The notes under the pieces are model-generated. The model was given only the letters and a program-made list of their open reading frames with translations, was not told the DNA's origin and made no database searches. Source: Acidobacteriota bacterium (lineage in GTDB: Bacteria; Acidobacteriota; Aminicenantia; UBA2199). From it: a stretch of 64,000 bases of DNA. Below are positions 35,097 through 56,764 of the stretch, one piece after another. A program made the translations under genes and the position numbers. The DNA lies in assembly GCA_025456205.1 (NCBI GenBank), contig JALOLA010000006.1, positions 10,713-74,712 on the forward strand, read 5' to 3'. Numbering within the stretch: position 1 is the first letter of the stretch; each line of letters starts with the position of its first letter.

Positions 35097-35143
35097 GAAT
35101 GGGGGACCCGCGGCGATTATACCATGAAAGAACTCGCTGAACT

Positions 35144-35178
35144 CGGCGTGGGGCGAAGGGCGCAAGGCGTAGGGCAGA
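35144..35178 (+). repeat. Heptamer array (GGGCGNA-like, 5 units)
   Basis: cggcgtg gggcgaa gggcgca aggcgta gggcaga. Confidence 0.7.
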
Positions 35179-35179
35179 A

Positions 35180-35357
35180 AAACACTAAATTCCAAGCACC
35201 AAATCCCAAATTTCAAATAAATTCCAATTTCCAAATTCCAATGACCAAAACAAAGACCCGGCTCCATGCTGATTTCGGAGGAGCGCTTTTGTTTGGGTCA
35301 TTTGGTTATTGGTGCTTGGAGCTTGTTTGGAATTTGGTGCTTGGGATTTGGGATTTT
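35180..35357. repeat. Imperfect ~180 bp palindrome built from AAATYCC/AAGCACC heptamers
   Basis: Left arm aaattcc aagcacc aaatccc aaatttc aaat aaattcc... mirrored by ggtgctt ggagctt gttt ggaattt ggtgctt gggattt gggattt. Confidence 0.88.
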
Positions 35358-35367
35358 ATTCTTACTT

Positions 35368-35388
35368 GTCACGCGTTACGCGTCACAA
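35368..35388. repeat. Heptamer array GTYACGC (3 units)
   Basis: gtcacgc gttacgc gtcacaa; 19 nt identical to the array at 52749. Confidence 0.75.
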
Positions 35389-35393
35389 AGCGC

Positions 35394-35744
35394 TTATTTT
35401 ATTGTGAAATCGCGGTCGGAGAAATCGTTGATGCGCAGGTCGCGGAGCGAGCAGATGCGCAGGCGGTAGCGGCCGTCAACGGGCAGGCTCGCCGCTACGG
35501 TCCACTGGAATTGGCCGCTGTCCGGAACGCTGGCCGCGATGACGGCGTGCTGCTCGCCGCCCTTGAACAAAAGGATGGCCAGGCTGCCCTCGATGCCCAG
35601 GGTGCGCCACTGCACCGCCACCCGGCTGCCGCGGGCCAGCACTTCGCCGCCGTTGGGGAACTCGATGCGGATGGAGCGCTCGCCTGCGGAGAGGAGCAGG
35701 GAGAGCATGGCCAGCACGACGAACCTTCGCATGATCATCGCCAT
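35394..35744 (-). CDS. Small secreted Ig-like protein (Kre9/KNH1-like, Ser-Thr-rich GPI-anchored family domain)
   Basis: Signal peptide; PNGGE...G....W, G.F.W.V, YRLRI, D.SD..FTI. Confidence 0.7.
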   Translation of the reverse strand: MAMIMRRFVVLAMLSLLLSAGERSIRIEFPNGGEVLARGSRVAVQWRTLGIEGSLAILLFKGGEQHAVIAASVPDSGQFQWTVAASLPVDGRYRLRICSLRDLRINDFSDRDFTIK

Positions 35745-35799
35745 TAAATAAAAGATGCCTTTTTGCTATCTCACGTTTTTAAATTTTTCCCAAAAAAAA

Positions 35800-35881
35800 T
35801 ACGCCCGGAGAGACTCGAACTCCCAACGCGCAGCTTCGAAGGCTTCGAAGGCTGCCGCTCTATCCTTTGAGCTACGGGCGC
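35800..35881 (-). tRNA. tRNA-Arg(TCG) with a 9-nt duplication in the anticodon loop (possible pseudo-tRNA)
   Basis: GCGCCCG acceptor, GCTC/GAGC D stem, GCAGC-CTTCGAA-GCCTTCGAA-GCTGC anticodon arm, GGGAG-TTCGAGT-CTCTC T arm; no encoded CCA. Confidence 0.85.
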
Positions 35882-35949
35882 TTGCGCCGCTGCATTATAG
35901 CCGGATCCGCCGGCTGCGGCAATAAGCGGGGATGTGCTATAATCCACGC

Positions 35950-36816
35950 ATGCCCAAGCAAACCCCTTTCGGCCGGCCGGTGACCGAGCTGGCCAGGAAA
36001 CGCTTTTCGTGCCGCAGCTTCGACGGCCGCGGCCTGGAGCCGGAACAGCTGGAGGCCCTGGCGAATTTTCCCGTTGGCCTGGATCTGCCCTTTGCCAGCC
36101 GCCTGCGCTTCGGCGTGATCGACAGGGAGAAGGTCAGGGCGGAAAACCTGTTCTCCACCGGCAGCTACGGCATGATCAAGGGCGCGCGCTTCTACCTGGC
36201 CGCCCTGGTCGCCACGGACGCGCCGCGCCCCTGGGAGGACATCGGCTTCGCCCTGGAGACGGCGGTCCTTTACGCCACGGCGCTCGATCTGGGCAGTTGC
36301 TGGATCGGCGGCATCTTCGACCGCAAGAATTTCGCCAGGGCGCTCGCCATGAAGGCAAACGAGATGCTGCCGGCCGTGGTGGCCCTTGGCCGCCCGGCAA
36401 CCCGCCCATCCCTGCGCGACCGCCTGGTGCGCTGGAGCGCCAGGGGCAACCTGCGCAAGGATCCCGCCGGCCTTTTCTTTGCCGGCGCCTGGGGCGCGCC
36501 CTTGCCGCTCGCTGCGGCGGACCCTTGGAGCCGCGTGCTGGACTGCGTCCGCCTGGCGCCCTCGGCCTCCAACAAGCAGCCATGGCGCATCGTCCGCCAG
36601 GGCAGCGCTTTTCATTTCTTTCTCCACCGCGACAAAGCCTATGGCAAATTGATGCCTCTCGCCGACCTGCAGCGCATCGACATGGGCATCGCCATGTGCC
36701 ATTTCCAGTTCAGCGCCGCCGAGCGCGGCCTTGAAGGCGGCTGGGCCGACAATGACCCGCGGCTGCCGGATACGCCGGGCAATTTCGAATATATCGCGAG
36801 CTTTGTGGCCCGCTAG
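35950..36816 (+). CDS. Nitroreductase family protein (two domains)
   Basis: RFSCRSF, LGSCWIGG, RLAPSASNKQPW, IDMGIAMCHF. Confidence 0.9.
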   Translation: MPKQTPFGRPVTELARKRFSCRSFDGRGLEPEQLEALANFPVGLDLPFASRLRFGVIDREKVRAENLFSTGSYGMIKGARFYLAALVATDAPRPWEDIGFALETAVLYATALDLGSCWIGGIFDRKNFARALAMKANEMLPAVVALGRPATRPSLRDRLVRWSARGNLRKDPAGLFFAGAWGAPLPLAAADPWSRVLDCVRLAPSASNKQPWRIVRQGSAFHFFLHRDKAYGKLMPLADLQRIDMGIAMCHFQFSAAERGLEGGWADNDPRLPDTPGNFEYIASFVAR

Positions 36817-36851
36817 AACGGTCGGACCGTGTTTGCCGCCGCGCGGGCGTT

Positions 36852-36880
36852 TTGACACCCGCTTGGCCGGTCTTTATAAT
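36852..36880 (+). promoter_or_regulatory. Consensus sigma70 promoter
   Basis: TTGACA-N17-TATAAT, 8 nt before ATG 36889. Confidence 0.8.
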
Positions 36881-36888
36881 GGGACGGC

Positions 36889-38715
36889 ATGATCCAGTTG
36901 CATAAAGCCCCGGTTACCGGCTTGGCTGATGATCGACGCTTCGCCCGCGTCCTGGCCCTTTCGTTCCTTTTTTCCGCCCTGTATTTTACCCTCACCCACT
37001 TTAACAGCGTGGATTGCTGGTGGCACATGCGCGGCGCGGAATATTTCTGGCAGCATGGAGCGCCGCTGCTCAACGACACGCTCGCCATCCCCGGCGAAGC
37101 CCCGCTCCTGGCCCTTTACCCGAACCTGCTGCCCGGGACGATGTTCCTGCTGGCCTTCAGCGCCGGCTCGTTCCTGGGCTTGAACCTGCTGCGCATCGCC
37201 GTGTTCATGATTTTTTTAGCCGTGCTGACCTGGTCGATCTTCCGCAGGCGGAAGGATCCTTCATTGTTGCTGAGCGCCGTGGCCGTGCTGGTGCTGGCCA
37301 TGGCCGGCATGGTGGTGCTGCGTCCCGACCTGTTCAATTACGCCTATCTCGTTCTCTGGCTGCTGCTGCTCGAGCAGGCCCGGCGCCGGCCGCAGCGACT
37401 GGGGCCGCTGGCCGGCCTGGCCGTGGTGGAAATCCTGTGGGTAAACAGCCATCCCTTGTTCTTTTATTATGGATTGGGGCTCGGGCTCTTTTCGGCTTTC
37501 TTCATCGCCGGGGGGGCGAAGGTCACATTGCCCCGGTTCCGGGGCGTGCAGGTCCCCAGCCGCCTGCTCTTCCTGGCGGTGATCGGGTTGGGCTGGCTGC
37601 TGAACCCGCTGGGGTGGCAGGTGCTGCAGGGGCTGCCGGTGAACATGCTCCGCGCCGATTATGCCGCCGGCTCGATGCGCTCGACGGCCGCGGCCCTGGT
37701 CAGCGTGAACACCGCCCTCTTTTTCCTGCTTGCCATTGCGCTCCTGGCCGCCCGCCCCTGGCGGCGCCTGGCCTCCCGCGCGGACCGTCTGTGGTTTTTT
37801 GGTGCATTGCTGCTGGTGGCGGTGCCGGCGCTGCTCTACCAGCGCGCCCTGCCGTTCCTGCCGATCTTTCTCATTGTCGCCTCGGCCCTGGCCCCCGAAC
37901 CCCGGTCGCTCAACGAGCGACCGCGGCGCCGGCTGTGGGCACAGGCGCTGCTGGCCGGCCTCTGCGTCTTCCTGATGCTGGAGCGCCTGTACCTGCTCTC
38001 CCCGCGCCTAATAGGCCGGATCAACAGCGCCCTGCACGTGCAGCTGGCGGAGGAGTTCCTGCCTGCCGGCATCGGGGTCACGGCGGTCCTGCCGGAGGAG
38101 CAGGTCCGCGAGGTCGAGATCCTCAACGCCCTCGGCTGCCGCGGCAACCTGGTCAGCAACCATTTGGGCCTCTGCAGCGCCGTTACCTGGCTGGCCCGGG
38201 GACTGACCCCGTACTGGTATGGCCATGCCGCGCTGATCAACGCCCGCAGCGAGGAACTGCGCGCCTTCTTCATCGCCCTGGAAAGCAGCGATGACGCGGT
38301 CGCAAGGCGCTTCATCGACCGCTACCGCATCGACGTGGTCGCCTTGACCAACTATACCTCCCGATTCCTGGCGGCGCCCGCGCGCTTCCTGGAGCACCTG
38401 GTCCCCGTTTATTTCGACCCCTACCTCACCGTCTGCGTTCCCCGGGGCCGGCTGCGGGATGAAACACGGCGGGAACTGGGCCGTTTCTTCAGCGCCTTCT
38501 CGCCGGGAGAAAGGGACCGCCAGGCGTTCGACCCGGTCCGGCAAGTGGAGCAATACAAGCTGTTATGGCTTTCAGCGCGGATGCACGGGCTGGACGGGGA
38601 GCGCTTCCTCTTGCCGCTGCGCCGGGCGATTTCCATGGAGGAATGGCGCTCGTTCCGCCGGCAGGCCGATCCGCTGATCGAAGCCGTGCGTCGGCTGCAG
38701 CCGGAACGGGACTGA
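36889..38715 (+). CDS. Polytopic membrane protein, probable GT-C type glycosyltransferase
   Basis: DCWWHM..G, RPDLF, LWVNSH, LLNPLG motifs; many TM helices. Confidence 0.6.
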   Translation: MIQLHKAPVTGLADDRRFARVLALSFLFSALYFTLTHFNSVDCWWHMRGAEYFWQHGAPLLNDTLAIPGEAPLLALYPNLLPGTMFLLAFSAGSFLGLNLLRIAVFMIFLAVLTWSIFRRRKDPSLLLSAVAVLVLAMAGMVVLRPDLFNYAYLVLWLLLLEQARRRPQRLGPLAGLAVVEILWVNSHPLFFYYGLGLGLFSAFFIAGGAKVTLPRFRGVQVPSRLLFLAVIGLGWLLNPLGWQVLQGLPVNMLRADYAAGSMRSTAAALVSVNTALFFLLAIALLAARPWRRLASRADRLWFFGALLLVAVPALLYQRALPFLPIFLIVASALAPEPRSLNERPRRRLWAQALLAGLCVFLMLERLYLLSPRLIGRINSALHVQLAEEFLPAGIGVTAVLPEEQVREVEILNALGCRGNLVSNHLGLCSAVTWLARGLTPYWYGHAALINARSEELRAFFIALESSDDAVARRFIDRYRIDVVALTNYTSRFLAAPARFLEHLVPVYFDPYLTVCVPRGRLRDETRRELGRFFSAFSPGERDRQAFDPVRQVEQYKLLWLSARMHGLDGERFLLPLRRAISMEEWRSFRRQADPLIEAVRRLQPERD

Positions 38716-38750
38716 TCGAGCGCGGTGAAATAATGATCCTGAAAATCATT

Positions 38751-38872
38751 GGTAAACGGTTCACGGTGAACGGTTGACGGTCAGGAAAACATACCAGGTA
38801 TTCATGTAAGCTCTATGAGATCGGTTTCAGGAGGTTCTCCTTCCGTACACCGTCTACCTTCTACCTTCTACC
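38751..38872. repeat. Two facing heptamer arrays (GGTNNAN) between convergent genes
   Basis: Plus: ggtaaac ggttcac ggtgaac ggttgac ggtcagg; minus: ggtagaa ggtagaa ggtagac ggtgtac ggaagga. Confidence 0.8.
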
Positions 38873-38883
38873 GAGTTCAGCTT

Positions 38884-39996
<1,113 letters not shown>

Positions 39997-40099
39997 GTCT
40001 GTGGATCCTTGTCGTTGGTTTTTGCCATTATAGCGGGGTTGCGCAGAAAAATCCAGAGCCTCGCCCGCGGCGGGCCGGCCCCGGCAGTGGGGAAACGGA

Positions 40100-40128
40100 T
40101 TGACAGCCGGGGGCATATACTATAAAAT
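40100..40128 (+). promoter_or_regulatory. sigma70 promoter of tRNA-His
   Basis: TTGACA-N17-TAAAAT. Confidence 0.8.
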
Positions 40129-40138
40129 GCAGGGGCGC

Positions 40139-40214
40139 GGTGAGTGTAGCTCAATGGTAGAGTATCAGACTGTGGATCTGACCGCTGCGGGTTCAAGTCC
40201 CGTCACTCACCCCA
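40139..40214 (+). tRNA. tRNA-His(GTG)
   Basis: G-1, GTGAGTG/CACTCAC acceptor, TCAGA-CTGTGGA-TCTGA anticodon arm, GTTCAAGTCC, C73 and encoded CCA. Confidence 0.97.
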
Positions 40215-40315
40215 CTTCCCGCCTGCCTTTCCGGGCCTTCCCCCTCCTCCTTAGTCTGAATGGGTGTATGTTGGAGCGGGCCGGCTTTTGCCCTGAGCTT
40301 ACTTAATCGCACCGC

Positions 40316-41407
40316 TCATTCGGCGATGATGTCCACTTTTGTCGGCCGCCCGAAACGGCCGAGCATGTTGACCGGCGCCACCCACAGCGAGCTGTTCCCG
40401 CCTGCCAGCGGGACCGACAGGCTGTCGGCGCACGGCCTCCAGCTCTTTCCCCTGTCCAGGCTCAGGGCGAAGCGGTCGAAGTTGAACATGGAGCCTTCGC
40501 TGGTAAAGGTAAAAAAAGCCTGCCTTGCCTTCTTGTCGATGCGGTGCTCCACCCGGACATAATTGCAGTCGAAATAAATGTCCTCCACCCTCGATGTGAC
40601 ATGGGAATAGGGGATGCGGCCGTTGAAGGCGCCGGGGTCGATCCTTTCGTCCCTGAAGAAGAGGAACATGGCGAAGCGGTCGCCGACGGTGAGCGGCCGG
40701 GTCGAGCGCATGAGGTCCGAGCGCAGGCTCACGGCGAAATTGGCGTAGAGGTGCAGCTTATGCCGGCCGCGTTCGGCACGGGGCTCGCCGGCGGCGCGGG
40801 CCGTGGCCGGCCCCGCTCCCAGCAGGGCGGAGCGGACCTCCAGGGCGGAGGCCGGCACGCCCAACCCGGGGATCTCATAATAAATGTTCTCGGCCGGGTC
40901 GAGGACCAGCCATTTGCCGAACTGGTCCGACCAGGCCTCGACCACGAAATGGCTTTCTCCCGTGGCGCTCCACAGTTCAACGTAGCGGACGGCGAAAAAA
41001 CCCATGGCCTTAAGGACATCGGCGAGGACATAGGCGTACTGGCCGCAGAACCCGCCGGTTTTCCCCGAGCGGATGTCCGCCAGGATGTCCACGGCGTTGC
41101 TGAGGGGATAGGGGTCGGGGATGGATGTCCGCCATTGGCGATGGGTCCAGTCGCAGAGCTTCAGGAAGAGGTCAAGCTGGTCGCTGAAGCGCAGGTCCTT
41201 GAAATTTTCATCACGGCGCAGCTGCTGCAGCTTGGCTTCCCGCCAATGCTCGGGGATGAAATGGAAGTTGCTCTTTTTGGCGCTGACAGGGCTGACGTCG
41301 ATATGGATCCCCGTCTGAAAGGCCTTTCGGGATAGAAACAGGGCCGCCAGGAGCAACACCGCCGCCAGGGGCAGCAGGAGTTCAACGAAATATTTCTTCT
41401 GCTTCAT
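40316..41407 (-). CDS. Transglutaminase-like domain protein, membrane anchored
   Basis: N-terminal TM helix; GFCGQYA, SHFVVEAW, WLVLDP Cys-His-Asp triad. Confidence 0.75.
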   Translation of the reverse strand: MKQKKYFVELLLPLAAVLLLAALFLSRKAFQTGIHIDVSPVSAKKSNFHFIPEHWREAKLQQLRRDENFKDLRFSDQLDLFLKLCDWTHRQWRTSIPDPYPLSNAVDILADIRSGKTGGFCGQYAYVLADVLKAMGFFAVRYVELWSATGESHFVVEAWSDQFGKWLVLDPAENIYYEIPGLGVPASALEVRSALLGAGPATARAAGEPRAERGRHKLHLYANFAVSLRSDLMRSTRPLTVGDRFAMFLFFRDERIDPGAFNGRIPYSHVTSRVEDIYFDCNYVRVEHRIDKKARQAFFTFTSEGSMFNFDRFALSLDRGKSWRPCADSLSVPLAGGNSSLWVAPVNMLGRFGRPTKVDIIAE

Positions 41408-41524
41408 GTGTCCGCCGCCATGTCAGGAAGGGCGGCAGGCAATCACTATAGCGCATCCGCATTTTATTAGCAAAGCCCGGGCGGCTCGCGGCCGCCACGG
41501 TCCGTCGCGCTTTCCGGCCGGGGG

Positions 41525-41749
41525 CTAGAACACCAGCGGCCATTTTTTCTTGATGGCCGCCAGGTCCTTCTCCTTGGCGACGAAGCTCTGCACGTAGCCG
41601 CACTGGCCGCAGACGAAGTTGTCCAGGGCCGCGGCCCGGAAGAGCGAGACCGGGATGCAGTTGCTGTCGTGCATCCCCGATTTCCCTTTCACGCCGGCGC
41701 CGCTATAGATTTCCTTGCCGCCGCACAGCGGGCAGGTTCCGTTCATCAT
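41525..41749 (-). CDS. Small zinc-ribbon protein (74 aa)
   Basis: CPLCG...VCGQCGY; GGAGG SD before ATG 41749. Confidence 0.75.
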   Translation of the reverse strand: MMNGTCPLCGGKEIYSGAGVKGKSGMHDSNCIPVSLFRAAALDNFVCGQCGYVQSFVAKEKDLAAIKKKWPLVF

Positions 41750-41778
41750 GGTCTTCCTCCTCGTTTCGCCGATCGGGT

Positions 41779-41895
41779 TCATTGCGTCCGCCATTCCCTG
41801 GGGGCGTTGTCCCCGGTCTTCCCGGGAGCGGCGTCCGCCGCGGGCATGGCCATCAGCAGCAAGAAAAGAATGATCAGGAAAATCAGTTTTTTCAT
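41779..41895 (-). CDS. 38-aa ORF consisting mostly of a signal peptide (small secreted peptide or gene remnant)
   Basis: [38 protein letters not shown]; ATGA overlap with the upstream gene. Confidence 0.5.
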   Translation of the reverse strand: MKKLIFLIILFLLLMAMPAADAAPGKTGDNAPREWRTQ

Positions 41896-42104
41896 GGTTT
41901 CCCCCCGTCTGCGGGCGTTCCGCCTTCGCCCGCCCCGCCTGCCGCCGGGGCCGCCGGCGCTTTTTTACGGCGCCGGCTGATGGCCTCGTGCAGGATGGAC
42001 TCGATCTGGCCGTTGACGCTGCGGAAATCGTCGGCCGCCCATCGTTCCAGCTCTTCCCACATCTCGGGGCTGAGCCGCAGCAGGAATGCTTTTTTGGCGG
42101 GCAT
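41892..42104 (-). CDS. Arc-like ribbon-helix-helix DNA-binding protein
   Basis: [10 protein letters not shown]...[17 protein letters not shown]; directly follows an SPFH gene. Confidence 0.85.
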
Positions 42105-42117
42105 GGGCCAGGGACGC

Positions 42118-43014
42118 TTACTTGTACAGCGTGCCGGCGTTGATCACGGGCTGGGCCTCGGCCTCGCCGCACAGGACGACCAGCAGGTTGCTGACCATGG
42201 CGGCCTTGCGCTCCTCGTCCAGGTCGACGACATTCTTGCTCTTCAGGTCGTCCAGCGCCATCTCGACCATGGACACCGCGCCGTGCACGATCTTGCGCCG
42301 GGCGGCGATGATGGCCTCGGCCTGCTGGCGGCGCAGCATGGCATTGGCGATCTCCGGGGCATAGGCCAGGTGGGTGAGGCGCGTCTCCTCGACCTGCACG
42401 CCGGCTTTCTGCAGCCGTTCCTGGAGTTCCTTTTTCAGGACCAGTGCCACTTCGTCCATGCCGCTGCGCAGCGTCATCTCCTCTTCCTCCTCGCCGTGGT
42501 CATAGGGATAGCAGTTGGCCAGGTGGCGCAGGGCGGCGTCGCTCTGGATCTTGACGTAATGCTCGTAGTGGTCGACGTCAAAGAGGGCGTGGGCAGTGTC
42601 GACCACGCGCCAGACCACCACGGCGGCGATCTCGATGGGGTTGCCGCGCTTGTCATTGACCTTCAGCTTGTCGATCTCGAAGTTGCGGATGCGCCGCGAC
42701 ACCGTGTACTTCGCACGCGGCACGGCCAGTGCCAGCGGATTGGTCCAATGGAAGCCGTCATCGTTGATCGTGCCCTTGTACTTGCCGAAGAGGACCAGCA
42801 CCTTGGCCTCGTTGGGCTGCAGGGTGAAGTAGCCCGGAGGCAGGATGCCGGCCACCACGACCAGCAGGCCTGTGAGCAGCAATACCTGGGCGAGCGACCA
42901 GTGCACATTGTTCGCTCCCTCGAGGAAAACCATGACAATGGCCAGGATCAGCAGTGCATGGATGGCGGCGACGGCCCAGCCTTTGAATGATCGCCCTTGC
43001 TTTTCTTTAGTCAT
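42118..43014 (-). CDS. SPFH/band 7 domain membrane protein
   Basis: [46 protein letters not shown]. Confidence 0.92.
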
Positions 43015-43028
43015 TCGAACCTCCTAAT

Positions 43029-43078
43029 TGCTATCGAAATGATATCAAAAATATAGCATCACTTTTTGCCGCTGTCAA
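43029..43078 (-). promoter_or_regulatory. sigma70 promoter with candidate RHH operator
   Basis: TTGACA-N17-TATATT followed by TGATATCA-ttt-CGATAGCA just before the SD. Confidence 0.7.
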
Positions 43079-43248
43079 CAAAAAAATTTTCTTTTGAGAT
43101 CAAACTTGTTATCTGTATAACATTTACCCGGGAATGTCTTTCGCTGTCTTCTAAAAAAAAGTGGTTTTCCCGGTTGTTTTACTATAATTGATGGCATTTT
43201 CCCCGATATTCCAGATCGCCGTGCAGCGTCCGCGCAGCAAGCTGTGAT

Positions 43249-43264
43249 TGGCATGGGGTTTGCT
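43249..43264 (+). promoter_or_regulatory. sigma54 (-24/-12) promoter of the PilZ gene
   Basis: TGGCATG-GGGT-TTGCT. Confidence 0.7.
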
Positions 43265-46768: not shown

Positions 46769-48850
46769 ATGCAAAAATCAATCCAGATCGCAATAGAGGG
46801 TTCTACCCTTAAAATCGACATCCACCGCTGGGCCCGCCAGTCCAACGGCTCGGCCCTGCTCACCTACAAGGACAACATGATCCTGGTCACCGCCAACATG
46901 CGGGACGAGGCGAAAGAGGGGCAGGATTTCCTGCCGCTCATGGTCGATTTCCGCGAGAACACGTACTCTGCCGGCAAGATCCCCGGCGGTTTCTTCAAGC
47001 GCGAGGGCAAGCCCTCTGAAAAGGAAGTGCTGCTCTCCCGCCTGATCGACCGTCCCATCCGCCCCCTGTTCCCCGAGAACTACCACCACGACACCCAGGT
47101 GATCGCCATGCTGCTCTCGGCTGACTTCAGCATCGATTACGACGCCATGGGCATCATCGGCGCCTCCGCCGCCCTGCTCTCCTCGACCATCCCCTTCACC
47201 ACCCCGCTGGCCGCCGTCAAGATCGGCTGGAAGGCCGGGCAGTATGTCATCAATCCCGGCCTGGACATGCGCAAGGAACTGGACATGATCCTGCTGGTGG
47301 CCGGCACGGAGAGCGAGGTGGTCATGCTCGAGGCCGGCGGCAACGAGTTCTCCGACCAGGTGTTCCTGGAAGGGCTGCGCCGGGCCAAGGAAGTGATCTC
47401 CGCCATCTGCCAGGCGCAGAAGGAGCTGATCAATCCCGATAAAATGGCCCTCACTCCCAAGCCGGAGACGGCCGCCCTGGCCGCCGATATCCGCGGGAGA
47501 TTCTCCGCCCAGATCCGCGACGCCATCTTCACCCAGGACCGCGTGCTGCGCCGCCTCAAGATCAAGGCCATCATGGAGGAGATCCAGCAGGGCAAGGACG
47601 ACCCGGCGGAGATCAGCCGCATCAAGGGCGCCTTCGAGGCCGTCGAAGCCCAGGTCTTTCGCGAGACGCTCCTGAAGGAAAAGCGGCGCACCGACAACCG
47701 CTCCTACACCGAGATCCGCCCGATCTCCATCGAGCTGGGCATCCTGCCGCGCGTCCACGGCTCGGCTGTCTTCACCCGCGGCGAGACCCAGTCGCTTTCG
47801 ACCGTCACCCTGGGCTCCGAGGACGATGCCCAGCGCCTGGACCTTCTCAGCGGCGAGGATTTCAAGAAGAAGTTCCTCCTGCACTATAACTTCCCGCCCT
47901 TTTCGGTGGGCGAGGTCAGCTTCCTCAGGGGAGCGGGCCGCCGCGAGATCGGGCATGGCAACCTGGCCGAGAAGGCCCTGAAGCAGATCATCCCGGACAA
48001 TGAAGCGTTCCCCTACACCATCCGCGTGGTCTCCGACATCCTGGAATCGAACGGTTCCTCCTCCATGGCCACGGTCTGCGGCGGCACGCTGGCCCTGATG
48101 AACGCCGGCGTGCCCATCAAGGCGCCGGTGGCCGGCATCGCCATGGGCCTGGTCAAGGAGGGCAACGAATTCGCCGTCCTGACCGACATCGCCGGCTACG
48201 AGGACCATTTCGGCGACATGGACTTCAAGGTCGCGGGCACCGAAAAGGGCATCACCGCCATCCAGCTGGACATCAAGATCGGCGGCCTGACCGACGAGGT
48301 CATCCGCCGCACCATCGAGGACGCCCGCGCCGCCTACCTGGCCATCCTGGCCAAGATGAAGCAGGCCATTCCCGCGCCGTCGACAAAGCTGTCCGAGTAC
48401 GCCCCGGTGATCCTGACCATGATGATCAACGTCGACAAGATCCGCGACCTGATCGGCCCGGGCGGCAAGACCATCAAGGAGCTCGTGGCCACCTTCAACG
48501 CCAAGATCAACGTCGAGGACGATGGCAAGGTCTCCATCGCCGCCGCCAACCGCGAGCTGGGGGAGAGGGTGATGGCCCGCATCGAGGAGCTGACCGGCTC
48601 TCCCGAGGTCGACAAGGTCTACAACGGCAAGATCAACCGCATCGAGGATTACGGCCTGTTCGTGGAGATCATGCCCGGCGTCACCGGGCTGCTGCACGTT
48701 TCCGAGGTCTCCCAGCGCCGCATCCGCGATGTCCGCCAGGAATACAAGCTGGGCGACATGATCGAGGTCAAAGTGATGTCCCTGGACCGCGACGGCAAGA
48801 TGAAGCTGAGCCACAAGGTCCTGGAGAACAGCTCGCGCAGCGGGGAATGA
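46769..48850 (+). CDS. pnp: Polyribonucleotide nucleotidyltransferase
   Basis: IPGGFFKREG, RREIGHG, ESNGSSSMA, GDMDFKVAG, KH and S1 domains. Confidence 0.97.
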   Translation: MQKSIQIAIEGSTLKIDIHRWARQSNGSALLTYKDNMILVTANMRDEAKEGQDFLPLMVDFRENTYSAGKIPGGFFKREGKPSEKEVLLSRLIDRPIRPLFPENYHHDTQVIAMLLSADFSIDYDAMGIIGASAALLSSTIPFTTPLAAVKIGWKAGQYVINPGLDMRKELDMILLVAGTESEVVMLEAGGNEFSDQVFLEGLRRAKEVISAICQAQKELINPDKMALTPKPETAALAADIRGRFSAQIRDAIFTQDRVLRRLKIKAIMEEIQQGKDDPAEISRIKGAFEAVEAQVFRETLLKEKRRTDNRSYTEIRPISIELGILPRVHGSAVFTRGETQSLSTVTLGSEDDAQRLDLLSGEDFKKKFLLHYNFPPFSVGEVSFLRGAGRREIGHGNLAEKALKQIIPDNEAFPYTIRVVSDILESNGSSSMATVCGGTLALMNAGVPIKAPVAGIAMGLVKEGNEFAVLTDIAGYEDHFGDMDFKVAGTEKGITAIQLDIKIGGLTDEVIRRTIEDARAAYLAILAKMKQAIPAPSTKLSEYAPVILTMMINVDKIRDLIGPGGKTIKELVATFNAKINVEDDGKVSIAAANRELGERVMARIEELTGSPEVDKVYNGKINRIEDYGLFVEIMPGVTGLLHVSEVSQRRIRDVRQEYKLGDMIEVKVMSLDRDGKMKLSHKVLENSSRSGE

Positions 48851-48890
48851 GCAGAGGGGCGGTCCACCCGCCCGCTCGGGAGGCGTGACC

Positions 48891-49400
48891 ATGCAAGCTA
48901 GCCGCCGGGCCGCAGCGGGCGCCGTCCCGCCGCTTCGTGCCGGCGGGAAGCGCGGCTTCACCCTGATCGAGGTCATCACCGTCACCGTCATCATCGGCGT
49001 CCTGGCCGCGGCCGCCCTGCCCCTGGCCCACAACGCCTTCCAGCGCGAGAAAGAGATCGAGCTGCGCCGCGCCCTGCGCCTGCTGCGCACCGCCATCGAC
49101 GACTACAAGAAGTTCGTCGAGGACTTCAAGCTCGAGGTGGACGAGGACACCTACGGTTACCCCGAGAAGCTGGACATCCTGGTCAAGGGCGTCGAGTACA
49201 AGGACAAGAAGGGCAAGACCCGCATCATGAAGTTCCTGCGCCGCATCCCGGTCGACCCGTTCAGCGGCTCCGGCGAATGGGGCCTGCGCTCCTACCAGGA
49301 CAAGCTCGGCTCGCGCCGCTGGGGCGGGCAGAACGTCTGGGACGTCTACTGCGATTCCGACAAGAAGGCGCTCGACGGCACCGACTTCCGCGACTGGTGA
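48891..49400 (+). CDS. Type II secretion pseudopilin (PulG/GspG-like)
   Basis: RG|FTLIE, REKEIELR, GYP, FLRRIPVDP, WGLRSYQD. Confidence 0.85.
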   Translation: MQASRRAAAGAVPPLRAGGKRGFTLIEVITVTVIIGVLAAAALPLAHNAFQREKEIELRRALRLLRTAIDDYKKFVEDFKLEVDEDTYGYPEKLDILVKGVEYKDKKGKTRIMKFLRRIPVDPFSGSGEWGLRSYQDKLGSRRWGGQNVWDVYCDSDKKALDGTDFRDW

Positions 49401-49414
49401 GCGGCGCCGGGGTG

Positions 49415-51604
49415 CTACAGGCTCAGGCTCAGTCCCATGGAGAGGTCAATGCCCCGGGCCAGGGGAATGTCGGGATCGCCGTTGGCGTAATACGCGCGGT
49501 TGAACACGTTGGCGATCTTGGCGAACAGCAGCACGCGGCTGGAGAAATAGCAGCCGGCCTTGAGATCGCAGACCTGAAAGGCGGGAACGGCGCTCTCTGC
49601 CGGGCCCGGCCGGCGTTGCGCCGTCGCGGCCAGCCAGTCCACCTCGGCCCAAAGCCGGCCCAGCCATAGCTTCGTTCCCAGGAACAGCCGGGCGCTGGGG
49701 ACGTCGTTCAGCGCGCCGCCGCCGCCGCTGCTGCCGCGATAATAAAAGCCGTTGCCGAAGATCTCCAGTTTTTGCAGGGGGTAATATTGGAACTCCAGCT
49801 CCAGGCCGCGGACGCGGCCGCTCTCGATGTTGGCGTAGGTATATGCCGTGCCGCCCAAGGGAAATTTCTCGATCATGCCGCGGATGGAGCATTGAAAAAG
49901 AGCGGCGGCGATAAAAAGGTCGCGGCCATGGACCTTGACGCCGGCGTCGAGGTTGAGGCTTTTTTCCGGCTCCAGGCCCGGATTGCCGACGATCGTGCTG
50001 CGGCCGGTGATGCCGGTATAGAATGATTCGCTCAGGGAAGGCTGGCGGAAGGCCGTGCCGGCGTTGACGAAAAGGGTCAGGCTGTTCCTTATCCTGCGGG
50101 TGGCCCCCAGGAAAAACGCCGGCGCCAGCGAGCGGCTTTCCAGGAAAACCCCGGAAGACCGGGCGCTGCGGCAAAACGATCCCAGGCGAACCCCGGCGAG
50201 CCAGTCAAGGCCGTGCGGGGACTGCCAGGAAAGCGTGGAATAGAGCCCCAGGTCGCCGCGCCGGCCGTCGGCCAGCGGCACGGCAGCCTCGCTCAGAACG
50301 CCCTGCTGCCAGGTTTCGTTCACCATCTCCACGCCGCCGCGGCCGTAGTAATCGATGCCGGATTGCAGGGAGAGCCTTTCGGAAAAACGCTTCTTCAAAA
50401 AGGCGCGGAAGCCGAAGTCGAGGGCATCGTTCCGCGACACCTCCTTCTGGCGCACGGCCGGCCTGACCTTGTTCAGCTCGTAATCGCTGGCGTTGACGAA
50501 CAAGGCGATATTCAGCGAGCCGGCCGCCGGCCAGCCGTCTTCGCGATAGGAGAAGTTCAGCAGGCGCGTGTTCTCCTCGGGATAGAAGGAGGACACGGCA
50601 AGGTCGTTGGCGCGGTCGGGCTTGCCGACGTCCCGCCCGGCCGAGCCCAGGAAGCGCAGGCGGAAGCCGCGCTTTTCCGTGTCGTAGCCGATGTCCAATG
50701 ACCCGGAATAATAGCGATAGCCGGAGTTCAGCACCGTTCCCTTTCCCGAAGCGTAATTGCCGGCCTGCGCGACCTGGGCGGCAACGAGCCAGGAAAGACC
50801 GCCCGCCTTGCCGCGCAGGGAGATGCCACCGTTGAGCTTCTCGTCAGCGGAATGACCGCTGAGGTTCAGGGTGCAGAACCCGGGCTCGGGATCGCCGCCG
50901 GCGCGGGAAAACACCTGGATCACGCCGCCGATGGCATCGGAGCCGTAAAGGACCGACGAAGCGGAACGGGAGACCTCGACCTGGCGGACCAGCTCCGGGG
51001 GGAAGAAATGGCCGGAGGTGCCGGCACTGCGATCGCTGGTAATGCGCGCCCCGTCGACCAGGAACAGGACGCGCCGCCGCGCCAGGCCGCGGATGCTCGG
51101 CGTGACCGCGATGCCGCCCTTGCCGATGAAATGGACCCCGGGCGAATTCTGGACCGCCTGGGTGACCGATTCGGGCAGTTCCTCGCGCAGCGTCATGCCG
51201 CTGATGACCTTCTGGGCCGCCGGGACGGCAATGGCTTTCTCGGCGCTGTTCATGGCGGTGACGGCCACGTCCTCCTTGAGCTGGCGGACGGGGATCAGGT
51301 ACACCTTCATGCGCACGGCGGCGCCTCTGAGGGAGATGACCCTTTTCTCCAGGTGGAACTGGGTGGAAACGAAATGAAGAGTCAGAAAAGGGATGGCTTC
51401 ATCGACGCTGAAGGCGAAGGCGCCGTCGGCGTCGGTGACGACGGCGTGCTCACCGTCGGCGACCTTGACGACGATCCCGGCCAGCGGCCGGTCGTGAATG
51501 TCGCGCACCGTGCCGCGCACCTCCAGCGCCGCCAGCGGCATGGCGAGCGTTGTCAGCAGGCAGGCGAGGTAAAGGGATCGGCGCTTTTTTTTTCTTAAGG
51601 CCAT
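49415..51604 (-). CDS. TonB-dependent receptor with N-terminal carboxypeptidase-regulatory-like domain
   Basis: GTVRD..G..TDADG.F, SIRG, SVLYGSDAIGGVI, GNPGLEPE. Confidence 0.9.
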   Translation of the reverse strand: MALRKKKRRSLYLACLLTTLAMPLAALEVRGTVRDIHDRPLAGIVVKVADGEHAVVTDADGAFAFSVDEAIPFLTLHFVSTQFHLEKRVISLRGAAVRMKVYLIPVRQLKEDVAVTAMNSAEKAIAVPAAQKVISGMTLREELPESVTQAVQNSPGVHFIGKGGIAVTPSIRGLARRRVLFLVDGARITSDRSAGTSGHFFPPELVRQVEVSRSASSVLYGSDAIGGVIQVFSRAGGDPEPGFCTLNLSGHSADEKLNGGISLRGKAGGLSWLVAAQVAQAGNYASGKGTVLNSGYRYYSGSLDIGYDTEKRGFRLRFLGSAGRDVGKPDRANDLAVSSFYPEENTRLLNFSYREDGWPAAGSLNIALFVNASDYELNKVRPAVRQKEVSRNDALDFGFRAFLKKRFSERLSLQSGIDYYGRGGVEMVNETWQQGVLSEAAVPLADGRRGDLGLYSTLSWQSPHGLDWLAGVRLGSFCRSARSSGVFLESRSLAPAFFLGATRRIRNSLTLFVNAGTAFRQPSLSESFYTGITGRSTIVGNPGLEPEKSLNLDAGVKVHGRDLFIAAALFQCSIRGMIEKFPLGGTAYTYANIESGRVRGLELEFQYYPLQKLEIFGNGFYYRGSSGGGGALNDVPSARLFLGTKLWLGRLWAEVDWLAATAQRRPGPAESAVPAFQVCDLKAGCYFSSRVLLFAKIANVFNRAYYANGDPDIPLARGIDLSMGLSLSL

Positions 51605-51694
51605 TCACCCTGTGTACGTCCTGAGACGCCGTTTGTTTCGGGCGGCGGTTGCCTGCGCTGTCGTGATTTGCTATCATGGGCGCCAGGAGGGGGA

Positions 51695-52732
51695 GTGTAC
51701 GTCCTGGGCATCGAAACCTCGTGCGACGAGACGGCCGTGGCCGTGATCGAGAGGGGCGACAATAACGCCGTTCTTGCCGAGGCGATCAAGTCGCAGGACG
51801 AGCTGCACGCGCCCTTCGGCGGCATTGTCCCCGAGATCGCCGCCCGCAGCCATTACGAGGTCATCGACCGCCTCTGCCGCCAGGCGCTGCGCCAGGCCCG
51901 GGTCGATATCGACGAGATCGAGCTCCTGGCCGTTACGCTGGGGCCGGGGCTGGTCGGCTCCCTGCTGGTCGGCCTGGCGTTCGCCAAGGGGCTGGCCATG
52001 GCCCATGAGCTGCCCCTGGTCGCTGTCGACCATATCGCGGCCCATGTCGAGGCGCCGTTCATCAGCCACAAGCACATCGCCTACCCGCTGCTGGCTCTGG
52101 TCGTTTCGGGAGGGCACACCTCGCTGTTTTACCAGGAGGAGAAGTTCGGCGGCCGGGTGATCGCCAAGACCCGGGATGATGCCGCCGGCGAGGTGATGGA
52201 CAAGGTGGCCAAGCATTTCGGACTGGGGTATCCCGGCGGACCGCTGCTGGACGCCCTGTATGAAAAGGGCGATGCCGGGCGCTTCCAGTTCACGCGGCCG
52301 CGCATGAGCGACGGCGGCGATGATTTTTCCTTTTCCGGCTACAAGTCGGCGCTGCTCCGCCAGGCCCAGGAGTTGGGGGTGCAGCCGGGGAGCAAGGACT
52401 TTCATGACCTCCTGTCGTCCTTTCTGGCCGCCCTGGTCGACTACCTGCTGGCCAAGACGCTGGAGGCCGCCGCGCGCCTCCCCGTGCGCTCGCTGCTCGT
52501 GTCGGGAGGCGTCAGCCGCAACTCGCTGCTGCGCCGGCGCTTCGCCGACGCCTGCGCCGCCGCAGGCTTGCCGCTGCACCTGCCCGAACCCCGCTACTGC
52601 ACCGACAACGCCGCCATGATCGCCTGGCTGGGCTATGAGAAATATCTGGCCTTTCCCAACATGAATTATTACGACCTTTTCCTCAATTCCTATTCCCGGG
52701 CGTCATTCAGGGCGAGCCAGCGGCACCGGTAG
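51695..52732 (+). CDS. tsaD: tRNA N6-threonylcarbamoyltransferase
   Basis: LGIETSCDET, GGIVPEIA, HIAAH, VSGGHT, DDAAGE, CTDNAAMI; GTG 51695 after AGGAGG. Confidence 0.95.
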   Translation: MYVLGIETSCDETAVAVIERGDNNAVLAEAIKSQDELHAPFGGIVPEIAARSHYEVIDRLCRQALRQARVDIDEIELLAVTLGPGLVGSLLVGLAFAKGLAMAHELPLVAVDHIAAHVEAPFISHKHIAYPLLALVVSGGHTSLFYQEEKFGGRVIAKTRDDAAGEVMDKVAKHFGLGYPGGPLLDALYEKGDAGRFQFTRPRMSDGGDDFSFSGYKSALLRQAQELGVQPGSKDFHDLLSSFLAALVDYLLAKTLEAAARLPVRSLLVSGGVSRNSLLRRRFADACAAAGLPLHLPEPRYCTDNAAMIAWLGYEKYLAFPNMNYYDLFLNSYSRASFRASQRHR

Positions 52733-52748
52733 CTCGAAGGGGGCCTTC

Positions 52749-52769
52749 GTCACGCGTTACGCGTCACGA
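52749..52769. repeat. Heptamer array GTYACGC between convergent tsaD and pckA
   Basis: gtcacgc gttacgc gtcacga; 19 nt identical to 35368-35386. Confidence 0.75.
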
Positions 52770-52783
52770 TAGTTCGTTGAGGC

Positions 52784-54427
<1,644 letters not shown>

Positions 54428-54544
54428 GGCTTTCTCCTTTTGTTAAGGGAGAAATTATAAGACATCGCGGGCATAAAATCAATCCGCGCGCCCTGGAAGC
54501 TGAAGCCCGGCCCAGGCTTCCTGGGGCGCGGCAGGCGCGGCGCA

Positions 54545-54574
54545 TTGACAAGCATAACCGAAAAATGCTACAAT
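54545..54574 (+). promoter_or_regulatory. sigma70 promoter of rpmE-prfA-prmC
   Basis: TTGACA-N18-TACAAT with extended -10 TG. Confidence 0.7.
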
Positions 54575-54592
54575 CCGACCTGCGGAGGAACC

Positions 54593-54799
54593 ATGAAGAA
54601 AGACATCCATCCCAAATATATGGAATGCACCGTGGTCTGCGCCTGCGGCAACACGTTCAAGACCCGGTCCACCCTGCCCAAGATTGAAGTGGAGATCTGT
54701 TCTTCCTGCCATCCCTTTTTCACCGGCAAGCAGAAGTATGTCGACACCGAAGGCCGGATAGAGAAATTCAAGAAAAAGTATGGCTACAAGGAACAGTGA
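54593..54799 (+). CDS. rpmE: 50S ribosomal protein L31 (Zn-binding type)
   Basis: [21 protein letters not shown]. Confidence 0.97.
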
Positions 54800-55886
54800 A
54801 AAGATATTTTCCTATCTCCAGAAGATCCACGACCGCTTTGAGCAGATCAGCGCCGAACTGAGCCAGCCCGAAACCGCCCAGCAGCAAAAAAAATTCCGCG
54901 ATCTTTCCAGGGAACTTTTCTCCCTCAAGCCGCTGGAGGAAAAATTCCATCCGCTGCGCAGGCTGCTGGAGCGCCGGCGTGACGCCGAGGGATTGCTGGC
55001 CGCCGCCGACGAGAAGGAAATGACCGACCTGGTGCAGGAGGAGATCTCGGCCCTGGACGGGGAGGAAGCGGCGCTGGTCGCCGAGGTCGAGGTGCTGATG
55101 GTCTCGGACCGCGAAGAGGACAGCCGCAACGCTTTTCTGGAGATCCGCGCCGGCGCCGGCGGCGACGAAGCGTCGCTTTTCGCCGGCGACCTGCTGCGCA
55201 TGTACATGCGCGTGGCCGAGAGGAAAAAATGGAAGGCCGAGGTCATCTCCACCACCTATTCGGGCATCGGCGGCATCAAGGAGGTCATCCTCTACGTCAA
55301 GGGCACCGAGGTGAACAAGTTCCTCAAGTTCGAGAGCGGCGTGCACCGCGTGCAGCGCGTCCCGGCGACGGAAGCCTCGGGCCGCATCCATACCTCGACC
55401 GTGACCGTGGCCGTGCTGCCCGAGGTCGAGGACGTCGAGGTCGACTTCAATCCCAAGGACATCCGCATCGACACCTACGCAGCCTCGGGCCCCGGCGGCC
55501 AGCATGTCAACAAGACCGAGTCGGCCATCCGCGTCACCCACACCCCCTCCGGCATCGTGGTCACCTGCCAGGACGAGAAATCGCAGCACAAGAACAAGGA
55601 AAAAGCGCTCAAGGTCCTGAAGGCCAGGCTTTACGAGCACGAGAAGAGCAAGCAGAACGAATCGATCGCCCAGAGCCGCAAGTCCCAGGTGGGCTCGGGC
55701 GAGCGCTCGGAGAAGATCCGCACCTACAATTTCCCCCAGAATCGCGTGACCGACCACCGCGTCAGCGGCCGCAACTTCAACGTCGGCTTCATCATCGACG
55801 GCGACCTGGACGCCCTGGTGGCCGACCTGACCGAAAGCCACGTGCGCGCCCGCATCGACGAGAAGATCAAGAGCCTGATCGCCTAG
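54780..55886 (+). CDS. prfA: Peptide chain release factor 1
   Basis: PAT anticodon tripeptide, [12 protein letters not shown]. Confidence 0.96.
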
Positions 55887-56719
55887 TGCTCTACTCCGAC
55901 CTCTTCGCCTGGGCCCTGCGCCGATGCGCCGGGAACGAGCTGCCCACCGCCATCGAGGTCCTGATCGAGGACTCTTTCTCCCTCAGCCGCAGCCGCTTCT
56001 GGATCCAGAAGAACCAGGTCATCCGCGACGCCAAAGGCGTGCGCCGCTTCCGGCGCCGGCTGCGGCGCCTGCTCGCCGGCGAGCCGCTGGCCTACATCCT
56101 GCGCGAGAAGGAATTCTTCGGCCACGCCTTCGCCGTGTCCCCGGCCGTGCTCGTCCCCAGGCCGGAGACCGAGCTGCTGGTCGAAAAGGCCCTGGAGCTC
56201 CTGGGCGGGAAGGCGGCTCGCGTCCTGGATATCGGCGCCGGCAGCGGCTGCATTGCCATCTCCATCGCCCTGCATGCGCCGGTGGCGGTCACAGCCCTGG
56301 AAAAGAGCCGGCCGGCGCTGCGCGTCCTCAAGAGGAACATCGAACGCTTCAAGCTGCTGGAAAGGGTGCACCCGCAGGCGGGCGACCTCTTTCCCCCTGC
56401 CGGCGAGCCCTATGAAATGATCGTCGCCAATCCCCCCTATCTCTCGCGGGGCGACTTGCGGCAGGCGCCGCGCAGCGTCCGCTTCTTCGAGCCGGCAGAA
56501 GCGCTGGTGGCGGGCGCGAAAGGCACCGAGGCGCTCGAGCGGATCATCGCCGGAGCCCCGCGCCAACTGGCCCCGGGCGGCCGTCTTCTGCTCGAGATCG
56601 GCCAGGGTCAGCGTCGCTCGGTGAGTGCTTTCCTGAAAGCCGCGGGGTTGCGCGAGGTCGAATGTGTTCGTGACTATGCCGGCATCGAGCGGGTGATTGT
56701 CGCTCAAAAAGACCGTTAA
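55886..56719 (+). CDS. prmC: Release factor glutamine methyltransferase
   Basis: EPLAYI, PRPETE, LDIGAGSG, NPPY, EIG; GTG start overlapping the prfA stop. Confidence 0.92.
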   Translation: MLYSDLFAWALRRCAGNELPTAIEVLIEDSFSLSRSRFWIQKNQVIRDAKGVRRFRRRLRRLLAGEPLAYILREKEFFGHAFAVSPAVLVPRPETELLVEKALELLGGKAARVLDIGAGSGCIAISIALHAPVAVTALEKSRPALRVLKRNIERFKLLERVHPQAGDLFPPAGEPYEMIVANPPYLSRGDLRQAPRSVRFFEPAEALVAGAKGTEALERIIAGAPRQLAPGGRLLLEIGQGQRRSVSAFLKAAGLREVECVRDYAGIERVIVAQKDR

Positions 56720-56729
56720 GCTGGCTTTT

Positions 56730-56764
56730 CTTCAACTTCGAACTTCGAACCTTGAACGCCGAAC
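56730..56764 (-). repeat. Heptamer array GTTCRRN immediately after the glmU-like stop
   Basis: Minus strand: taa gttcggc gttcaag gttcgaa gttcgaa gttgaag. Confidence 0.7.

Follow-up and report, generated by a model that had tools for sequence, protein, structure and literature searches.

The short tandemly repeated repetitive (STRR) sequences of cyanobacteria, which Mazel is said to have described in 1990, are reportedly plain tandem arrays of heptamers. Eukaryotic Foldback transposons have inverted termini made of short tandem units, with unequal arms and heterogeneous loops, but they are far longer and have known transposases. Here we analyzed a 64,000-nt stretch of DNA from an Acidobacteriota bacterium (assembly GCA_025456205.1, contig JALOLA010000006.1, positions 10,713 to 74,712; hereafter the window), in which heptamer arrays with several different unit sequences are found in four intergenic spacers, A through D. 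We found that these arrays are the arms of small palindromic foldback elements. The likeness to Foldback transposons is one of form only. We also favor, with a probability of roughly 0.6, the view that they are selfish elements related to the four-helix-bundle cassettes known from intervening sequences (IVS) of rRNA genes.

Several published systems have parts of this arrangement. Heptamer arrays, their preference for four units and their inverted pairing were already reported by Rehm et al. (2015, PMC4692102). In the available portions of that paper, the GGGAATC arrays of Xanthomonas and the GGGGA(C/T)T arrays of Nostoc are intergenic tandem heptamers less than 50 bp from stop codons and rare in divergent spacers, as are ours, and Xanthomonas has 70-75 inverted pairs per genome, pairing being likewise present here. 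Each of those genomes has one G-rich unit, read as forming G-quadruplexes. In contrast, our genome has at least ten unit families, most of which are unable to form G-quadruplexes, although the most common array length, four units, is the same. Those portions also describe raised locus stability, whereas we found nesting and turnover between congeners. Paired arrays of multiple classes were published for Geobacter metallireducens (Aklujkar et al. 2009, PMC2700814). There, as far as the accessible text goes, three to five tandem units of 7-9 nt occur in opposite-strand pairs at variable distance, with several classes in that genome that are absent from the sister species, all of which likewise applies here. 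That text interprets the arrays as IHF/HU-type sites and draws no link to a gene-bearing cassette. The TAACTGA arrays of marine Beggiatoaceae (MacGregor 2015, PMC4679880) are similar to ours in that they are abundant, intergenic, two to six units long and patchy in phyletic distribution. They differ, in the text available, in having one unit, almost always directly repeated and just upstream of start codons. Prokaryotic heptanucleotide simple-sequence repeats (Mrazek 2007, as summarized in PMC4679880) are likewise a 7-nt excess in noncoding DNA. As far as accessible, descriptions of STRR and simple-sequence repeats concern plain tandem arrays, and a paired, polar and nested architecture or a link to cassettes is not part of them.

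The IVS of 23S rRNA that carry an open reading frame (ORF; S23p/PF05635) are, in the part of PMC4990558 available, hairpin-bounded units with terminal inverted repeats, as are the elements described here. The same source (Warrier et al. 2016) gives the stem of the Coxiella IVS as 28 bp, the length of four heptamers, and, citing Ralph and McClelland, ORF-bearing IVS as possible mobile elements. The arms that we describe are common to cassettes with the same protein family as the 23S rRNA IVS. Unlike those IVS, the elements in the window are gene-less, lie in spacers and not in rRNA, and have arms that are visibly tandem heptamers. A literature search, which left subscription journals mostly uncovered, found no paper linking heptamer arrays with four-helix-bundle cassettes. 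What is new here is the bridge from abundant gene-less arrays to the cassettes, with controls.

Heptamer arrays as arms of foldback elements

We found a large excess of period-7 arrays in the spacers of this genome. The assembly is 2.59 Mb in 124 contigs (63% G+C, 87% complete), and our own gene calls gave 2338 genes, with 91% of the sequence coding. By the relatives of its uvrA, the organism belongs to Candidatus Aminicenantes (Acidobacteriota). Tandem Repeats Finder (TRF) reported 520 rows with period 7, compared to 95, 106 and 122 rows with periods 8, 10 and 11, and 446 of the 520 were in the noncoding 9% of the genome. In the spacers alone, 435 rows had period 7, whereas five dinucleotide shuffles averaged 5.6, and 32 rows had period 8, whereas the shuffles averaged 9.8. 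A stricter detector found 66 intergenic and 3 coding arrays of period 7, and at most 7 intergenic arrays at any other period from 4 to 15. The units fell into 27 clusters, 11 of them with six or more arrays. Unit number also varied; of two arms in C37, one had 14.6 units and the other 3. An earlier reading made from the letters of the window alone (the sequence-only reading) had proposed that the period is conserved while the unit is not, and this is true genome-wide. Its comparison to cyanobacterial STRR was also apt: head-to-tail 7-nt units are in excess, mostly in noncoding DNA, with several unit types per genome.

The bias toward gene ends that it had suggested was also evident. Arrays were present in 78 of 258 convergent spacers, 117 of 1088 co-directional spacers and 38 of 283 divergent spacers. 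When only spacers of 100-200 nt were counted, 31 of 60 convergent spacers had arrays, as did 45 of 221 tandem ones and 4 of 122 divergent ones. The median distance of an array was 15 nt from a stop codon and 78 nt from a start codon, and 34 of the 193 stop-facing arrays abutted or included the stop codon. The elements may lie mainly just past stop codons because insertions there are least harmful.

The arrays are paired, and the pairs are polar. Among 265 pairs of neighboring arrays, 74 were cognate and inverted and 14 were cognate and direct, with approximately 5% of each expected by chance. A more sensitive search found an inverted partner for 209 of 432 arrays, compared to 12 of 309 in the control. 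We use U for the unit reading found on the 5' arm and U-prime for the complementary form on the 3' arm. In 186 of 188 cases the partner was on the expected side, which is 3' for U and 5' for U-prime, and in 108 of 108 spacers holding at least two arrays, the U forms all preceded the U-prime forms. Because U always precedes U-prime, the elements must nest and are never in tandem. Relatives keep the same order, with 14, 16 and 21 nearby pairs (counted by eye) and none reversed. The order of families within a nest was loose, with CGTGACG, GTTCGAA and AGACGTT/GGTNNAC toward the outside and GGCGTAA, AAAAGGC and AAATTCC toward the inside. Solitary arrays in co-directional spacers had a weak orientation bias (39 vs 26).

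At least ten unit families have a common foldback layout. From one end to the other, an element consists of an outer motif, approximately four U heptamers, a purine-rich linker (RAAGAAA), a variable center, the complementary linker and approximately four U-prime heptamers. Four units was the mode of array length (212 of 432 arrays), and the 92 paired elements had a mean length of 152 nt. Boundaries are characteristic of each family. AGACGTT arrays end as (AGACGTT)n-AG-CAAGAAA, GTTCGAN arrays end in GTTGAAGAA, and the CGTGACG block is stereotyped: CGTGACG, CGTAACG, CGTGACG, CGTGACG and then CG-AAAGAA. With inverted termini, small size and many copies, the elements are like MITEs (miniature inverted-repeat transposable elements). 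Read inward, 140 of 376 arrays closed all three reading frames, compared to 32 of 376 read outward and 34% with shuffled units. This inward excess of stop triplets may only reflect the purine-rich 5' arms, and the families are not independent.

At one site (G000:C114:7274-7400), a 36-nt unit made of the end of an AGACGTT array and the linker CAAGAAAATCAACGGATGACT is present in three tandem copies. This indicates duplication above the scale of the heptamer.

Four-helix-bundle genes between the same arms

The sequence-only reading had raised the question of which ORF families lie between array pairs elsewhere in the genome. We considered 19 long-range cognate pairs of this genome as autonomous copies and rejected them, since the genes inside are ordinary and unrelated. 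In congeners, four-helix-bundle genes are recurrent between array pairs. In G007, the congener richest in CGTGACG arrays, a CGTGACG pair 532 nt apart encloses an ORF of 122 aa. The product is a four-helix-bundle protein of TIGR02436 (PF05635, 23S_rRNA_IVP), and among solved structures its closest relative is Xanthomonas campestris XCC0516 (2GSC, E = 6e-37). A second pair in that genome, 1251 nt, encloses a gene that by eye is ketopantoate-reductase-like. XCC0516 itself has a four-unit GGGAATC array across its start (Rehm et al. 2015, PMC4692102, supplement file 2), and the available text of PMC10053308 likens PF05635 to Avd, a factor of diversity-generating retroelements (DGRs).

We found four-helix-bundle genes in 21 of 28 genomes of the genus, and 24 of these ORFs had enough flanking DNA to be searched for arrays of period 5-10 within 260 nt. 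Arrays were present on both sides of 20 of the 24, with cognate inverted arms in 16; three had an array on one side and one had none. As a control, 2100 testable genes of this array-rich genome were treated alike. Only 90 had arrays on both sides and 15 had cognate arms (Fisher p = 3e-26). The arm units around the genus ORFs include AGACGTT, CGTGACG, AGTGACR, AGTGAAA, GGTNNAC, AGGGTAT and GGAGACC. In metagenomes, we took the best 80 of 599 loci, all with the peptide motif SIPSNIAE, and 64 of these had enough flank. Arrays were on both sides in 42 of the 64, on one side in 18 and absent in 4. Cognate arms were found in 28 of the 64, of which 22 were heptamer arms and 6 octamer arms.

The gene-bearing units duplicate from arm to arm. 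Two paralogous cassettes in one genome (L105 and L126) align from array to array only, over 530 nt at 82%, and two others that are 3.2 kb apart (L112 and L128) do the same over 552 nt at 84%. In both cases the flanks are unrelated.

Arms and linkers are common to gene-bearing and gene-less units. The upstream and downstream noncoding parts of three cassettes gave, in this genome, 70 and 73 hits (L110), 82 and 65 (L127) and 41 and 35 (L116), whereas the ORFs gave none. Upstream and downstream parts were joined in order at 17 places for L127, 10 for L110, 9 for L116, 7 for L132 and 5 for L126. Judged by sequence, these joined ends have the appearance expected of internal-deletion (MITE-like) derivatives of the cassettes. 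The longer partners with the same arms, which are found in congeners, encode a four-helix-bundle protein and no known transposase. Stem-forming inverted termini, as in IVS, are present here, and a PF05635 ORF in the loop is absent here and present in congeners. Among the window loci, the one in spacer C matches the arms of cassettes L105, L110, L126 and L127 at 93-100% over 22-31 nt. Three weak tblastn hits in this genome that we considered as remnants of a four-helix-bundle gene fall inside other genes and were rejected.

One four-helix-bundle gene in G012 adjoins an exceptionally long array, of 25.6 AAGTGAA units over 200 nt (L129, 1180-1379); the usual number is four.

Window loci and their turnover among congeners

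All of the arrays noted in the sequence-only reading are present, with offsets of no more than 2 nt, and they lie 0-36 nt from stop codons. It had also placed three of four loci between convergent genes, and this is the case for B, C and D. Locus A is between two minus-strand genes, ORF117 and uvrA in our own gene calls.

Locus A is composite. Five GGCGNAR heptamers on the plus strand (35144-35178) abut the uvrA promoter region and form an outward-facing 5' arm of the U form, that is, a half-element of the GGCGTAR family, which has 35 arrays genome-wide. TRF gave this array no score, and relatives retain a decayed ...CGCCGAGTTC end at its position. The adjacent AAATYCC/AAGCACC sequence had been taken for one array at 35180-35357. 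Its units are there, but a single array is not: inverted repeats define an imperfect palindrome of 179 nt (35179-35357, without strand), with AAATYCC/AAGCACC units in the left arm (approximately 35179-35250), their complement in the right arm (35300-35357) and an inner hairpin at 35240-35302. As DNA it folds with -53.5 kcal/mol (z = -5.6). Forty-two similar loci are present on 34 contigs, and their centers were alike in 11 of 11 cases. AAATYCC is the sole family with a conserved center, and its usual position is innermost. The third part of locus A, at 35368-35386 on the minus strand, is an outer half-element of the CGTGACG family with 2.7 units (GTGACGCGTAACGCGTGAC on the minus strand). It is 7 nt past the stop codon of a minus-strand ORF (35394-35744). 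A relative (L002) shares the left part of spacer A, in the order CGTGACG array, aagtaagaata, AAATCCC. The 19-mer GTCACGCGTTACGCGTCAC is present as exact copies at 35368-35386 and, in locus C, at 52749-52767.

Locus B is a GGTNNAC pair. The 5' arm (38751-38785, plus strand; GGTAAAC, GGTTCAC, GGTGAAC, GGTTGAC and GGTCAGG) begins 36 nt past the stop codon of the gene at 36889-38715. The center (38786-38837, without strand) is AT-rich and unique. The 3' arm (38838-38872, listed on the plus strand), found in an inverted-repeat search, is complementary to the 5' arm and is 11 nt from the stop codon of the minus-strand gene at 38884-39951. Locus C (52747-52769, without strand) is a near-palindrome, CGTCACGCGTTACGCGTCACG, between the convergent genes at 51695-52732 and 52784-54427, and appears to be a collapsed CGTGACG pair. 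Locus D (56730-56764) is a solo GTTCGAN arm on the minus strand (GTTCGGC, GTTCAAG, GTTCGAA, GTTCGAA and GTTGAAG) that begins right after the stop codon of the gene at 56765-57850 and finishes in the GTTCGAN boundary sequence given above.

We compared these spacers to those of 27 congeners. Spacer C could be followed in 21 genomes, including this one, and spacer D in 16. Spacer C was only 3-4 nt in 5 of the 21 genomes and 20 nt in one. It held CGTGACG pairs in three, AGTGACG pairs in three, AGTGAAA pairs in three and GGCGTAC-type pairs in four, one of which had a nested AAATCCC hairpin. In G013 (L074) it had an insert of 1.26 kb with one reverse-strand ORF that by eye is AAA-type ATPase-like. 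The spacer C of the window is 51 nt, and its outer flanks match those of full CGTGACG pairs of 221-227 nt in two relatives (L055 and L057). Since it has the outer flanks and nothing between the arms, we take it to be a collapsed remnant. Between L055 and L057, the centers are homologous but diverged and the arms are well kept.

Of the GTTCGAN pair that L047 has in full at spacer D, the window retains the right arm alone, and L059 and L058 keep part of that arm. Other genomes have CGTGACG, GGTNNAC or GGCGTAA elements there, or an extra gene. Elements thus appear to decay to solo arms or short palindromes, and loci C and D would be such remnants. In spacer B, G003 has a solo GTTCGAN array and G007 a GGCRTAC relic of two units, and in G011 the spacer is empty at approximately 30 nt. 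At the exact position in spacer A where L015, L014 and L001 have an AGTGAAA pair, the L017 sequence runs ...cacata|tagatcc... without it. Filled and empty sites were seen at spacers A, B and C.

Copy numbers also differed greatly between species, from 0 to 329 for CGTGACG among 28 congeners and from 0 to 157 for GTTCGAN. GTTCGAN was present in 16 of 18 congeners. Other genera of the family lacked it in all 32 genomes, and the rest of the class had it in 1 of 70. The CGTGACG and GTTCGAN profiles were loosely related (rho = 0.41, p = 0.09, n = 19). Only 19 period-7 rows were found in 400 kb of G037, indicating that the period-7 excess is not a constant of the genus. Together, the data show that the elements are dispersed and nested, with fast gain, loss and replacement between congeneric species. 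The suggestion that the arrays are footprints of a non-autonomous mobile element is supported by dispersed families with fixed boundaries, presence and absence at orthologous sites, bursts in particular species and arms shared with cassettes.

In contigs from public DNA runs, one (X2) spans locus B with a single differing letter, and joints at 35256/35362 and 35365/52748 resemble other copies of the same families. Among viral contigs, the sole exact match to a CGTGACG array was rejected, being in a coding, high-GC part of an unrelated contig, and the AGACGTT boundary had no match.

Several other features lie near the loci. A TATAAT-like box in catggtataatcg (35098-35135), approximately 25 nt ahead of the start of uvrA, is conserved throughout the relatives that we compared, and in these the repeat elements always stop just upstream of it. 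An Rfam search returned two tRNA genes alone above gathering scores, at 35800-35881 (minus strand, 51.6 bits), just beyond locus A, and at 40140-40211 (plus strand, 67.6 bits), and nothing at the arrays at E ≤ 5. The spacer D of five congeners (L030, L065, L066, L069 and L071) has an extra ORF of approximately 1.05-1.37 kb without arrays. The 730-aa gene at 49415-51604 (minus strand) lies within query positions 11401-13667, a part left uncovered by the alignments of all relatives, and is probably a variable gene within otherwise conserved synteny.

Alternative explanations and implications

Several observations weigh against a relationship to mobile cassettes. No clear target-site duplication was seen at the one precise filled/empty pair (cacata|tagatcc), and the spacer C flanks were ambiguous. 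This single pair could equally be an insertion or the deletion of a hairpin. Contigs of four public DNA runs had no informative insertion or excision variant in the interval 34900-54899. A similar center was found elsewhere in 7 of 24, 4 of 15 and 0 of 10 elements of three families; because centers are unique in most families, whole-element copies must be rare in this genome. The single, diverged whole-element copy pair consists of GTTCGAC elements at G000:C107:38504-38700 and 39873-40026, which are 1.3 kb apart with one gene between them and have centers that are alike when reversed (81% over 91 nt). This genome, at 87% completeness, had no PF05635 gene or remnant and no reverse transcriptase. 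Among the window loci, locus C alone had a BLAST match to a cassette. The GGTNNAC and GTTCGAN arms resemble cassettes L133 and L188 by unit type only, and the AAATYCC and GGCGNAR families had no gene-bearing counterpart among the loci examined. Several of the genus cassettes are orthologous and therefore not independent, and the metagenome loci were, as stated, a best-scoring subset with one peptide motif. Finally, the number of four-helix-bundle genes did not follow CGTGACG counts in the 28 congeners (rho = 0.015, p = 0.94).

It is also conceivable that the elements serve the host as 3'-end RNA structures, with stems that block exonucleases, serve as RNase III sites or end transcription. This would fit their closeness to stop codons, their enrichment in convergent spacers and the conserved arms and drifting center of the orthologous element in L055 and L057. 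In the available text of the respective papers, RNase III cleaves the stems of 23S rRNA IVS (PMC4990558), and most heptamer arrays of Xanthomonas are transcribed (PMC4692102). Several results make a primary role of this kind, which the sequence-only reading had offered as one of its two options, unlikely. Among the 39 paired elements from co-directional spacers, folding favored the sense RNA in 19 and the antisense RNA in 20 (Wilcoxon p = 0.77). Ten of the 92 paired elements lie between divergent genes, an orthologous spacer can be as short as 3-4 nt (spacer C), and copy number of one family ranges from 0 to 329. The fold of locus B is weak (z = -2.05). A scan of 34900-35900 and 38000-57900 for the terminator consensus, a short GC-rich hairpin before a T run, gave 30 terminator-like sites, all of them outside the array loci. 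A secondary effect at the RNA level, for example RNase III cutting the stems, may exist. A protein that reads double-stranded DNA in heptads, with one dimer or subunit per 7 bp, and acts in regulation, nucleoid organization or a centromere-like function would account for the preference for four units. In the available text of PMC9499535, the ribbon-helix-helix (RHH) protein Omega, from pSM19035, requires a minimum of four contiguous WATCACW repeats, each of 7 bp, for binding. A GTGA/TCAC core is common to four of our families, one unit being AATCACG. The similar paired arrays of G. metallireducens were read as sites for global regulators in the accessible text of Aklujkar et al. (PMC2700814). 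We consider such a role still less probable. Arrays of at least four contiguous 7-bp units are present, but a cognate Omega-type protein is not: Omega_Repress (PF07764) had no match in this genome at E ≤ 1, and RHH_1 had two. At least ten unit families would require equally many readers, and sites are missing or replaced at orthologous spacers and burst in number in particular species.

Repetitive extragenic palindromic (REP) doublets forming hairpins (REPINs) are inverted doublets that lie after stop codons and decay to solo copies. The elements could be of this type and be moved by a REP-associated tyrosine transposase (RAYT; Y1, HUH) encoded in the genome, which does have one Y1_Tnp gene. 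That gene, however, has classical GC-rich hairpins of the GTAG type (GTAGGGGCGGGTTT.AAACCCGCCC) on its flanks and inside it, and no heptamers. Unlike REPs, the heptamer arms are not GTAG-type palindromes, and the RAYT-like gene has REPs of its own. Array abundance does not follow RAYT: Y1 matches and CGTGACG counts in the 28 congeners gave rho = -0.30 (p = 0.12). G007, which is the richest genome with 329 CGTGACG matches, lacks any Y1 match, and G037, with no CGTGACG matches, has seven. We regard this origin as very improbable. It is equally hard to sustain that the arrays are plain simple-sequence repeats that arose in place by polymerase slippage, with no dispersal. Unit number does vary between arms and between species, and slippage has been proposed for the general heptanucleotide excess (Mrazek et al., as summarized in the available part of PMC4679880). 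Slippage in place does not fit the dozens of sites at which a given unit recurs with one set of inner and outer boundary motifs, cognate inverted partners far above chance, the stereotyped order of G/A variants within CGTGACG arrays or arms in common with gene-bearing cassettes.

The RAYT-like Y1 gene encodes 177 aa (G000:C109; L021, 1385-2054), and five REP hairpins, GTAGGGG(C/A)GGGTTT.AAACCC, lie around and within it. The strict pattern GTAGGGGMGGGTT has 5 matches in the genome and a looser hairpin-core pattern has 12. In this genome the RAYT gene and REP cluster are in the spacer upstream of the MNY(V/I)PLR... gene (L021), and in L115, L116 and L132 the same spacer has a four-helix-bundle cassette with AGACGTT arms. 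This spacer looks like a common landing place of different selfish elements.

The best interpretation, in our view, is that of selfish foldback elements related to IVS-type cassettes. The arrays in the window would then be gene-less or decayed members of the cassette class, that is, MITE-like relatives of cassettes whose arms enclose a TIGR02436/PF05635 gene. The cassettes appear to be built as are ORF-bearing 23S rRNA IVS, and copying would be of a hairpin-bounded unit, from arm to arm. The functional module may be the four-unit arm of approximately 28 nt. Most outer arms seem to bear a stop triplet, which the 7-nt period would shift through all three frames.

A broader proposal, which we put forward tentatively and hold to be possible rather than probable, is that bacterial heptamer repeats in general (STRR-type, Xanthomonas GGGAATC) are the arms or decay products of one class of hairpin-bounded cassettes. 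Full members of this class would carry a TIGR02436/PF05635 gene, for the "rRNA intervening sequence" protein related to the DGR factor Avd, and the protein would recognize or protect its own heptad arms of approximately 28 nt and aid their copying. Reports of heptamer arrays in cyanobacteria, Xanthomonas, Geobacter and Beggiatoaceae go back decades, with no agreement on their origin, and the TIGR02436 proteins, those of rRNA intervening sequences, form a very large family whose function is not known. The four-unit preference of the Xanthomonas arrays does not require G-quadruplexes. If the broader proposal is true, it would give both the heptamer repeats and the TIGR02436/PF05635 family a first function. 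The link between arrays and cassettes joins two open questions into one that can be tested.

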